A stretch of 64,000 bases of DNA from Escherichia coli (GTDB lineage Bacteria > Pseudomonadota > Gammaproteobacteria > Enterobacterales > Enterobacteriaceae), in assembly GCF_003018255.1 (NCBI RefSeq), contig NZ_CP027440.1; one strand, given 5' to 3'. Under the pieces are notes generated by a model. That model made no database searches and was not told where the DNA came from. It saw only the letters and a list, made by a program, of their open reading frames with translations. Of the stretch, positions 10,461 to 12,430 are shown one piece after another. The translations under genes were made by a program, and so were the position numbers. Position 1 is the first letter of the stretch. Each line of letters starts with the position of its first letter.

Positions 10461-12221
10461 TTAGCTATTTAACATTAATTTATAATGTTCCTTTATATCT
10501 TTTATAGCATCAAAAATACAACAAAATGCCTTAAAATCTATTTTCCGCTTTTTATCTCTAACAACCCTCATGGAAAAAATATGCTTCCCATATTCCGTTC
10601 TTGAGTCTCCATCATTATTTTTGTTGAATTTCTTACCATCAATCTTGATATCTAAAATATCTTTAGGGAAAAGATCCTCCATTGAAGTTTGTTCGCCGGA
10701 AGGACTCAATGGTGTGAGAACTATATATAAATTATAGAAAACATGAATATATTTCATCTTTCTCATTTCAGTTACATCGTCTGGGCAGCTTTTAACTTTA
10801 TTGCGCAGAAAATTAAGTAAATCGCTTGGACCTGTATCATTATCAAGAACCATAATCACTGGCTGTTTTGGAACAGAACCATAATAAGAAGCATAATTAT
10901 TTTTATAACGCTCTACAAATTTTTTCAGATCTGCAGTTCCCCCAGAAAGATCTAAAAAATATTTGGTCTTTTCATTAGATTTAAATATATTAAGATTTAT
11001 TTCTTTCTTTTTACTATCTGTTTTTTCTCTAAACAACTCAGGATATGATGTCTCCAAAGAATGCAAAGCAGCCTTCAAATATATCCGATCAGTCTTCCCT
11101 TCTGTAATTATCGTAGGACAGGTGTTGCCATGAAAAAATTTATAGTAAATAAATTTACTATATGCTTTTTCTCGCGCATTCAACTTTAATTTAAAACCAT
11201 GCAAAGTCGCATTAGTCAATACATATCTATCAGGTTGCTTGTTCAGTTTTTTCTTTATATTGTTAAACTTATCAACTTGATCAATAAAACCAAACATCCC
11301 CTCAAGTTTATCCAGACCTCCTGAAACTAAAACACCATTTTCATCTGGCACTTTATATTCACCTGTACGATACAAAGCATGTGCCAACGCCCGAGTTTTT
11401 TTATAATAACATCTATCAATATTAACGATTCTGTTAACTGTAAGTCCAGTTACTTCTTGCCTTGATGTCTTATACGTAAGCCTAGTCTTTGAATCATTTA
11501 TTTCGAATCCAGAGTTTTCTATTTCTTTTACCAAAACTTTTCCCAAAACAACCCCTTCAGGTTGCACAGTAGCCATTTCTAACGGAAATGTATTTTTATT
11601 TGTAGAAATTGTTATATCATCAGCATATCTGCTATAAGTACATCCATATTTTTTAGCCAGTTTAGCTAATCTCATATCCATAATATTGCAAATTAGATTT
11701 GAGATAATAGGAGAACATGGACTTCCCTGGGGGAGGGTTCCATTATAGCATGCAGCTTTTGCAAGTGTCGTTGCCACCACAGGATTTAATAAAAAATCCT
11801 GATTGGAAAGAAAATATCCTCTAACTCGTCCGAAATTAAAGCTTTCAAAAAAATTCTTAAGATCTATATTTAATATTATTTGTTTGCCTCTATGCTTATA
11901 AGCATTTAGGATTATTGATTTTCCCCTCTCAAAACCAAAGGAATAGTTGTTACTAATTTTCCTTATAGCAAAGATCTCATCTCTACAATCAGAAAGTAAG
12001 TCACATATTCTTCGTTGGATGTCCTTCAACCGGTCTGTAGGTGCAGAAATAGTCCTTACCCCTTTTCCTTTCTTCGGTATTGTAAATTGAGTGTATTGAT
12101 TATCCGAGCCGATTCTATATAGAACGTTAGTTAAAAATACCAACTTAACATCTAAAATTTTAGCCAAGTCTTCACGTGAAGTAGCAGCCCTAAGTGCGTC
12201 AAGTTTAGATGTTTTTGTCAT
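10461..12221 (-). CDS. ret: Retron reverse transcriptase with C-terminal TOPRIM-like domain (Ec67 / Retron-Eco2-like)
   Basis: RT motifs [16 protein letters not shown] and the retron-typical VTG; C-terminal ITEGKTD and [10 protein letters not shown] fit a TOPRIM fold. Start taken at MTKTSK, giving 586 aa, the length I recall for the Ec67 RT. AT-rich relative to flanking phage genes. Confidence 0.85.
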
Positions 12222-12430
12222 TTCTTCTTCATCCCAGAGGAAAAAAGGCCAAGGAGAAACGCATGCAGGCACTCCTTCGCACAGCACACCTGCCGTATAG
12301 CTCTGAATCAAGGATTTTAGGGAGGCGATTCCTCCTGCCATTAAGGCCACTGGTTGCGATTCACAACCAACAAATCTGCCTACATGCGTGTTTATGAACA
12401 TATCACTTCAACTTTCTGTTTTCCAGAAGT
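12222..12430 (-). ncRNA. Candidate retron msr-msd non-coding region
   Basis: Immediately upstream of ret on the same strand. Two 5-bp hairpins with the same loop (GGAGG-cgatt-CCTCC about 12321..12335; GGTTG-cgattca-CAACC about 12351..12367) and an imperfect 12-nt inverted repeat (12260..12271 versus 12377..12388) that could be a2/a1. Exact boundaries not determined. Confidence 0.55.

Follow-up and report, generated by a model that had tools for sequence, protein, structure and literature searches.

A copy of retron Ec67 (Retron-Eco2) in the cos-proximal cargo slot of a P2/186-like prophage of Escherichia coli

Introduction

Retron Ec67, also called Eco2, was described around 1989-1990; its anti-phage role was shown in 2020, and its structure and mechanism followed in 2025-2026. 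The full-length protein, a reverse transcriptase (RT) fused to a Toprim nuclease, is a monomer without msDNA (PMC12405507), and its trimer is held together by nucleic acid, with the caged Toprim domains inactive (PMC12916289, PMC12405507). Eco2 is active against T2, T4, T5, SP15 and phages of several BASEL families. Escape mutations lie in denB in T2 and in A1 in T5-like phages; DenB of T-even phages acts on msDNA directly, and a role of A1 is implied by the escape mutants (PMC12916289). DenB cleaves msDNA before dC at positions 15, 17, 31 and 37, and the resulting decay exposes the active site; activated Eco2 then nicks tRNA acceptor stems and other RNAs, blocking protein synthesis (PMC12916289). 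The Toprim residues E374, D378, D460, D462 and E515 are required for defence and for RNase activity (PMC12916289, PMC12405507).

The gpA-cos-gpQ interval of P2-like phages is a defence hotspot whose cargo includes retrons (PMC9122126). We describe here a retron in this interval, found in a 64,000-nucleotide stretch of E. coli chromosome (the window) of which the first ~22.7 kb is a P2/186-like prophage. We conclude with high confidence that the minus strand has at 10461-12390 an entire retron Ec67 (Retron-Eco2, type I-C1), which is accessory cargo of that prophage.

Results

The RT-Toprim gene and its protein

By its sequence the locus is a single transcript unit on the minus strand, in which the msr-msd RNA gene is followed by a lone RT-Toprim gene (Table 1). 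The protein was compared with the chains deposited as 'Retron Ec67 protein' (PDB 9i2f, 9i2g, 9s1f and 9lm3), and 584 of 586 residues were identical (99.7%), with residues 1-586 aligned end to end. The NCBIfam model NF038237 (retron_Ec67_fus) scored 704.4 bits against a curated cut-off of 450 and was covered over profile positions 1-572 of 572, while the best PADLOC model, RT-Toprim_I-C, matched over its full length (718 bits, E = 1.5e-216); the top PADLOC and NCBIfam matches were retron RT models throughout. The initial annotation had proposed a retron whose 586-aa RT is fused to a TOPRIM-like domain and had suggested alignment to the Ec67 RT and to retron RT/TOPRIM profiles; both comparisons uphold the proposal and the length.

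The full open reading frame (10461..12401, minus strand) encodes 646 aa, and the protein begins at its third in-frame Met, codon 61 (ATG 12221-12219). Since residues 1-586 match the PDB chains end to end, the earlier claim that the N-terminus is over-called by 60 codons is right; the extra codons overlap the RNA gene. A related discrepancy was seen in RefSeq, which calls the Ec67 gene 626 aa in CP148326 (locus piece 6042-7922) and CP010229 (locus piece 3042-4922), a start that lies 40 codons too early, inside the msr-msd gene, for which no ncRNA feature is annotated; the diverged copy of E. coli GF4-3 is annotated at the correct 586 aa.

Table 1. Features of the retron locus and of the prophage around it (window coordinates)
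Feature	Coordinates	Strand	Basis or context
RT-Toprim gene, retron Ec67/Eco2	10461..12221	-	586 aa + stop; structure identity, family profiles
RT domain, aa 1-368	~11118-12221	-	limits per PMC12405507
Toprim nuclease domain, aa 369-586	~10464-11117	-	limits per PMC12405507
msr-msd ncRNA gene, 132 nt (first base of a1 to last base of a2)	12259..12390	-	S10 identity, fold, published numbering
Inverted repeat a1, 5' arm of closing stem	12377..12390	-	inverted-repeat search; pairing in 7 loci
Branching guanosine G15, 2'-OH primes msDNA synthesis	12376	-	published numbering; invariant in 7 loci
msr stem-loop rG20-rU42, loop AAU	12349..12371	-	predicted fold; covariation in 7 loci
msd template, ncRNA positions 52-118, for 67-nt msDNA	12273..12339	-	published landmarks
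Inverted repeat a2, 3' arm of closing stem	12259..12271	-	inverted-repeat search; pairing in 7 loci
Putative extended -10 element TGATATGTT for ncRNA-RT transcript	12397..12405	-	read from sequence (inferred)
Possible intrinsic terminator, hairpin then AUUUUU, after RT-Toprim stop	10420..10456	-	fold (tentative)
cos cohesive-end 19-mer GGCGTGGCGGGGATACGAG	12460..12478	-	aligned to annotated P2 cosR including conserved flank
Capsid genes	before terminase in window order		prophage
Terminase	7628-9394		prophage
Portal gene Q (TIGR01540)	9391-10419		prophage
DinI-like gene	12683-12916		prophage
Replication endonuclease	13269-15710		prophage
Dam methylase, then CII-like and CI-like regulators	between replication endonuclease and integrase		prophage
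Integrase	20882-22081		prophage

The RT motifs that had been read from the translation, QGSPCSP, YADD and VTG, lie at residues 165-171, 199-202 and 257-259, respectively, and the retron-type NAxxH motif is present as NAYKH. The TOPRIM-like acidic motifs noticed in the C-terminal part are ITEGKTD (372-378), which holds E374 and D378, and a second motif (458-467), which holds D460 and D462; these are the four residues mutated in the nuclease-dead 'dTOPRIM' variant (PMC12916289), and together with E515 they are needed for defence (PMC12405507). The Toprim active-site pattern E...D...DxD...E (E374, D378, D460, D462, E515) is thus complete. In a family alignment of 120 representatives that are 45-99% identical to the protein, the invariant residues D120, Y199, A200, D201, D202, T258, G259, E374, D378, D460, D462 and E515 are all found here as well. 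The catalytic residues and the RNA elements described below are all intact and agree with those of the experimentally characterised retron Ec67. One published number does not fit: PMC12405507 names a 'catalytic lysine K562', and residue 562 here (~10536-10538) is Asp, in a region identical to the PDB chain, with lysines at 560 and 564 and with N, D or S at column 562 in the family; the number given in the paper may be offset.

A Pfam scan placed RVT_1 at residues 48-262 as the sole domain of the 586-aa protein and detected no Toprim family; the evidence for a Toprim domain therefore comes from the solved structures and from the PADLOC and NCBIfam models, both of them full-length. Between the portal gene and ~12452 (10420-12451) the RT-Toprim gene and the ncRNA take up the slot; the other open reading frames there are short, overlapping and unsupported, and the module has no separate effector gene. 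The G+C content of the coding sequence is 32.4%, against 54.1% in the flanking terminase and portal genes and 52.9% in the replication gene, in accordance with the AT-richness ascribed to the gene relative to its phage neighbours.

The msr-msd RNA gene and transcription signals

The ncRNA gene lies directly upstream of the RT gene on the same strand. An inverted-repeat search returned a 13-nt repeat in which 12259-12271 pairs with 12377-12389, and the segment 12393..12255 (minus strand) folds at -59.3 kcal/mol (z = -4.9), with none of 200 shuffled sequences folding as well. The ncRNA region does not differ at any base from that of E. coli S10, the source strain of the 9lm3 cryo-EM complex, in which msDNA is visible in the density (PMC12405507). 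The structured RNA that the initial annotation had placed upstream of the gene is therefore real, and from the identity to S10 we infer that the locus probably produces RNA-linked msDNA with a 2'-5' branch.

When numbering was started at the first C of a1, every nucleotide named in PMC12916289 and PMC12405507 was reproduced, namely G15, A16-U19, the stem-loop G20-U42 with its loop A30-A31-U32 (rA30-rA31-rU32 in PMC12405507), A49, A50, U51 and G52-A62. The reverse complement of the msd template is 67 nt long, with dT1 first and CTGCC last (C63-T64-G65-C66-C67), as published, and the msDNA deduced in this way has C at 15, 17, 31 and 37, which are the published DenB cut sites (PMC12916289).

Covariation was examined in seven loci, this one and six others with RT-Toprim proteins 57-86% identical to it. 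In the a1/a2 stem and the msr hairpin, 161 of 161 cells held standard pairs (100%), and the hairpin kept 10 of 10 pairs in all seven loci. Compensatory changes occurred at three pairs in total, two in the a1/a2 helix and one in the hairpin. Only 1 of 500 shuffles reached the observed values, and sliding the partner by 1-3 columns reduced pairing to 22-44%. The branching G was invariant across the seven loci, whose proteins are 57-100% identical. Drawn from seven sequences, this covariation support for the RNA elements is modest but consistent. In the same family of loci the msr (a1, G15, the stem-loop and the single strand to ~53) was almost invariant and the msd template diverged; with proteins only 57-86% identical, this RNA is thus conserved more strongly than the protein.

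No Rfam match to an msr-msd RNA was obtained, either in 9500-14000 by E-value or in the whole window at gathering thresholds; the sole Rfam match near the locus was a eukaryotic lncRNA model at E = 0.52, a chance hit. This Rfam miss and the Pfam miss of Toprim are library gaps, not contrary evidence.

We tentatively assign the promoter of the ncRNA-RT transcript to the extended -10 element TGATATGTT; a TGnTAnnTT-like motif lies at equal distance upstream of a1 in most diverged loci (6/7 rows). The terminator proposed after the RT-Toprim stop is equally tentative, the hairpin being weak (-11.3 kcal/mol, z = -2.3), and the diverged GF4-3 locus has a different hairpin in its place. A scan for consensus promoters and terminators returned no more sites than in shuffled sequences and flagged neither TGATATGTT nor the hairpin after the RT gene.

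The prophage, cos and the cargo slot

Alignment with the annotated termini of P2 gave the position of cos; searches with presumed P2 and 186 cos 19-mers had no match at up to 3 mismatches. The portal gene ends at 10419 and cos reads 12478..12460 on the minus strand, so that the retron sits, as the initial annotation had stated, between the portal gene and cos, on the gpQ side. Homology to retron-less P2-like phages ends ~8 nt past cos, at ~12452, and phage vB_EcoM-813R9 shares the flank down to the same point and then has a different gene in the same slot. The cos 19-mer GGCGTGGCGGGGATACGAG bounds the cargo slot and is not part of the retron.

When 5426 complete E. coli genomes were searched with a 2.2-kb query, 1277 matched part of it. 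Only 14 contained the greater part, of which 13 had 98.9-99.6% identity and one had 73%. The 13 close copies include those of S10 and NCTC8623, the strains used for the structures. In the partial match H15, among the matches listed, the cos-side flank alone was matched, and megablast against a collection of deposited phage genomes likewise matched the cos-side flank alone and found no retron.

Several features of the surrounding DNA were observed in passing. On the gpA side of cos, S10 and GF4-3 carry extra DNA with hypothetical open reading frames before the DinI-like gene (4973-5774 and 5291-5716 in the respective locus pieces), and the window lacks this segment at 12604-12683; the cos-proximal hotspot thus varies independently in two slots, which lie to either side of cos. 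A 336-aa PAPS-reductase-like open reading frame and the prophage Dam methylase adjoin each other (15707-16717 and 16714-17634, both minus strand); the former matches phrog_424 'phosphoadenosine phosphosulfate reductase' and, weakly, the PADLOC models SspD, BrxP and DndC. In the prophage of E. coli Z1323HEC0475, which is otherwise 96-97% identical, 153 bp stand in place of about 1.2 kb here (15608-16787); the early operon thus contains a second point of variable cargo.

The prophage/host junction lies near 22726, where prophage homology stops and homology to prophage-free chromosomes starts. Beside it, a porin open reading frame (22752-23699) matches PhoE/OmpF models only from profile position 50 and so appears to be N-terminally truncated or a pseudogene. 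The host genes from ~22.7 kb on include hchA, hprRS, msrPQ, zinT, mtfA and shiA, and the remaining features are those of an ordinary chromosome: four identical tRNA-Asn(GTT) genes and one tRNA-Ser(CGA) gene in 31155-44703, a cobalamin riboswitch at 48921-49095 (minus strand, 107 bits) and the sRNA STnc230 at 50162-50245 (plus strand).

Comparison with known retrons and hotspot cargo

The retrons Ec67/Eco2 of S10 and NCTC8623 have the same gene order, 586-aa length and ncRNA sequence as the locus, 99.7% protein identity, and the same order in the slot (terminase, portal, retron, DinI-like gene, replication gene). They differ in having D123/K541 where the locus has N123/R541, both conservative changes, and the S10 prophage has ~0.76 kb more DNA with hypothetical open reading frames on the far side of cos, which is absent from the window.

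More diverged Ec67-family retrons (E. coli GF4-3, 70% protein identity; metagenomic P0013, 57%) share the RT-Toprim architecture and an msr that hardly varies, compensatory changes having preserved the a1/a2 pairing, whereas the msd part and the protein are much more diverged. Several occupy the same portal-to-gpA slot of P2-like prophages, and some lie in non-P2 islands. Some relatives in this family adjoin defence-like genes (HEPN_LA2681, DUF4917, DUF3800, GIY-YIG).

Retron Ec86/Eco1 (type II-A) likewise has a retron RT with YADD, NAxxH and VTG and uses msDNA as the sensor, but its protein is only weakly similar (E = 1e-33, RT domain only), it has a separate N-glycosidase effector in contrast to the fused nuclease of Ec67, and it forms a filament, not a trimer (PMC12916289). 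The old/tin genes of P2 and other hotspot cargo resemble the retron in being accessory, AT-rich and devoted to superinfection exclusion in the gpA-gpQ interval beside cos, although old/tin are on the gpA side of cos and the retron is on the gpQ side. Old also uses a Toprim nuclease, coupled to an ABC ATPase sensor rather than to an RT and msDNA.

The N123/R541 allele

With respect to the S10 and PDB sequences the protein is changed at two positions, by D123N and K541R; in the Z1323HEC0475 copy one more residue, 341, is different. Residue 123 belongs to the nucleotide-binding part of the RT palm and follows the invariant motif-A Asp120 by three positions; it is Asp in every solved and reference copy, and we take it to correspond to D113 of HIV-1 RT and D153 of MMLV RT. 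Column 123 holds D in 96 of the 120 family representatives and N in 22, and column 541 is freely variable; as judged from this alignment, natural variation occurs at both substituted positions. With Asn so frequent in column 123 (22/120), we consider it unlikely that D123N is an inactivating mutation and rejected that reading. Both NCBI and UniRef contain the exact 586-aa protein, named after the Ec67 family; it occurs on 44 contigs, and NCBI calls it 'retron Ec67 family RNA-directed DNA polymerase/endonuclease'. The suspicion voiced in the initial annotation, that this was probably the known Ec67/Retron-Eco2 rather than something new, was therefore well founded.

Discussion

The results described above identify the element as one already known, the classic retron Ec67/Eco2 in the kind of prophage setting where it usually occurs, real but ordinary, and we found no evidence within the locus sequence against this assignment.

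Three other explanations were weighed. One holds that the gene encodes an RT of another class (a group II intron maturase, an Abi protein or a DRT-type defence RT) and that the upstream hairpins are incidental. RVT_1 is indeed the sole Pfam domain, and there are weak matches to group II RT and Drt2 models; however, these reach only 57.7 bits against a cut-off of 300 for the group II intron RT/maturase model TIGR04416 and 42.4 bits against 390 for the DRT2 model NF041746, and both candidates were rejected. The retron-specific features are all present, and the identity of 584 of 586 residues to the PDB Ec67 chains, together with the NF038237 score above its cut-off, refutes this reading, to which we attach no probability. 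A decayed or attenuated retron is also conceivable, in which D123N, next to the motif-A Asp, lowers or abolishes msDNA and leaves the locus inert or, with the Toprim domain uncaged, mildly toxic. The predominance of Asp at column 123 (96 of 120 representatives and all solved Ec67 sequences) would be in keeping with such a defect, as would the monomeric state of the full-length protein without msDNA (PMC12405507). On the other hand, Asn is found at this column across the family (22 of 120), the gene has no frameshift or stop, the ncRNA is unchanged, and the residues experimentally required are all intact; moreover, the recurrence of the exact N123/R541 protein on 44 contigs suggests that it is maintained. 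We consider decay very improbable.

The remaining explanation, the early view of retron Ec67 in the 1990 literature, sees in it chiefly a selfish retro-element, propagated through reverse transcription or transposition of its own, rather than a prophage defence gene. An AT-rich module (32% G+C) within a phage backbone of 54% G+C, with relatives in several unrelated genomic contexts, could be so explained. The module nevertheless occupies precisely the cos-proximal slot in which a different cargo gene, with the same right-hand boundary, is found in another P2-like phage, an arrangement that fits recombinational cargo exchange at the hotspot (PMC9122126). Among the open reading frames within 10420-12451 there is no transposase or integrase, and the only inverted repeats in a search of 12200-12450 were the retron's own a1/a2 pair. 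Since defence activity of retron Ec67 has also been demonstrated experimentally (PMC12916289), we regard a selfish element as scarcely credible, less so than a decayed retron, and retain the assignment to a complete retron Ec67.

A mechanism for this retron can be drawn from published experiments on copies two residues apart from the locus protein. The RT would use the 2'-OH of G15 and copy the ncRNA from position 118 down to 52 into a 67-nt DNA joined to RNA, the msDNA. Three RT-Toprim/msDNA units would then come together as a trimer, with the Toprim active sites caged by msDNA. Upon infection, phage DNA endonucleases would cut the msDNA, which would decay, and the freed Toprim nuclease would nick tRNA acceptor stems and other RNAs, so that translation would stop and the phage would fail to propagate. 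By analogy with the studied copies, expression, msDNA synthesis and defence are to be expected at this locus too, and the N123/R541 allele presumably works as those copies do, protecting the lysogen and its prophage against competing lytic phages. It is unlikely, if somewhat less so than outright decay, that the allele is functionally distinct from the studied D123/K541 retron; if it were, the yield or length of msDNA could change, and the changed msDNA could shift the threshold of Toprim release or the basal toxicity.

In itself the locus adds little that is new. It illustrates the N-terminal over-call of the Ec67 gene in RefSeq and the missing annotation of its ncRNA, and it provides a further case of a P2-like prophage with defence cargo in its cos-proximal hotspot.
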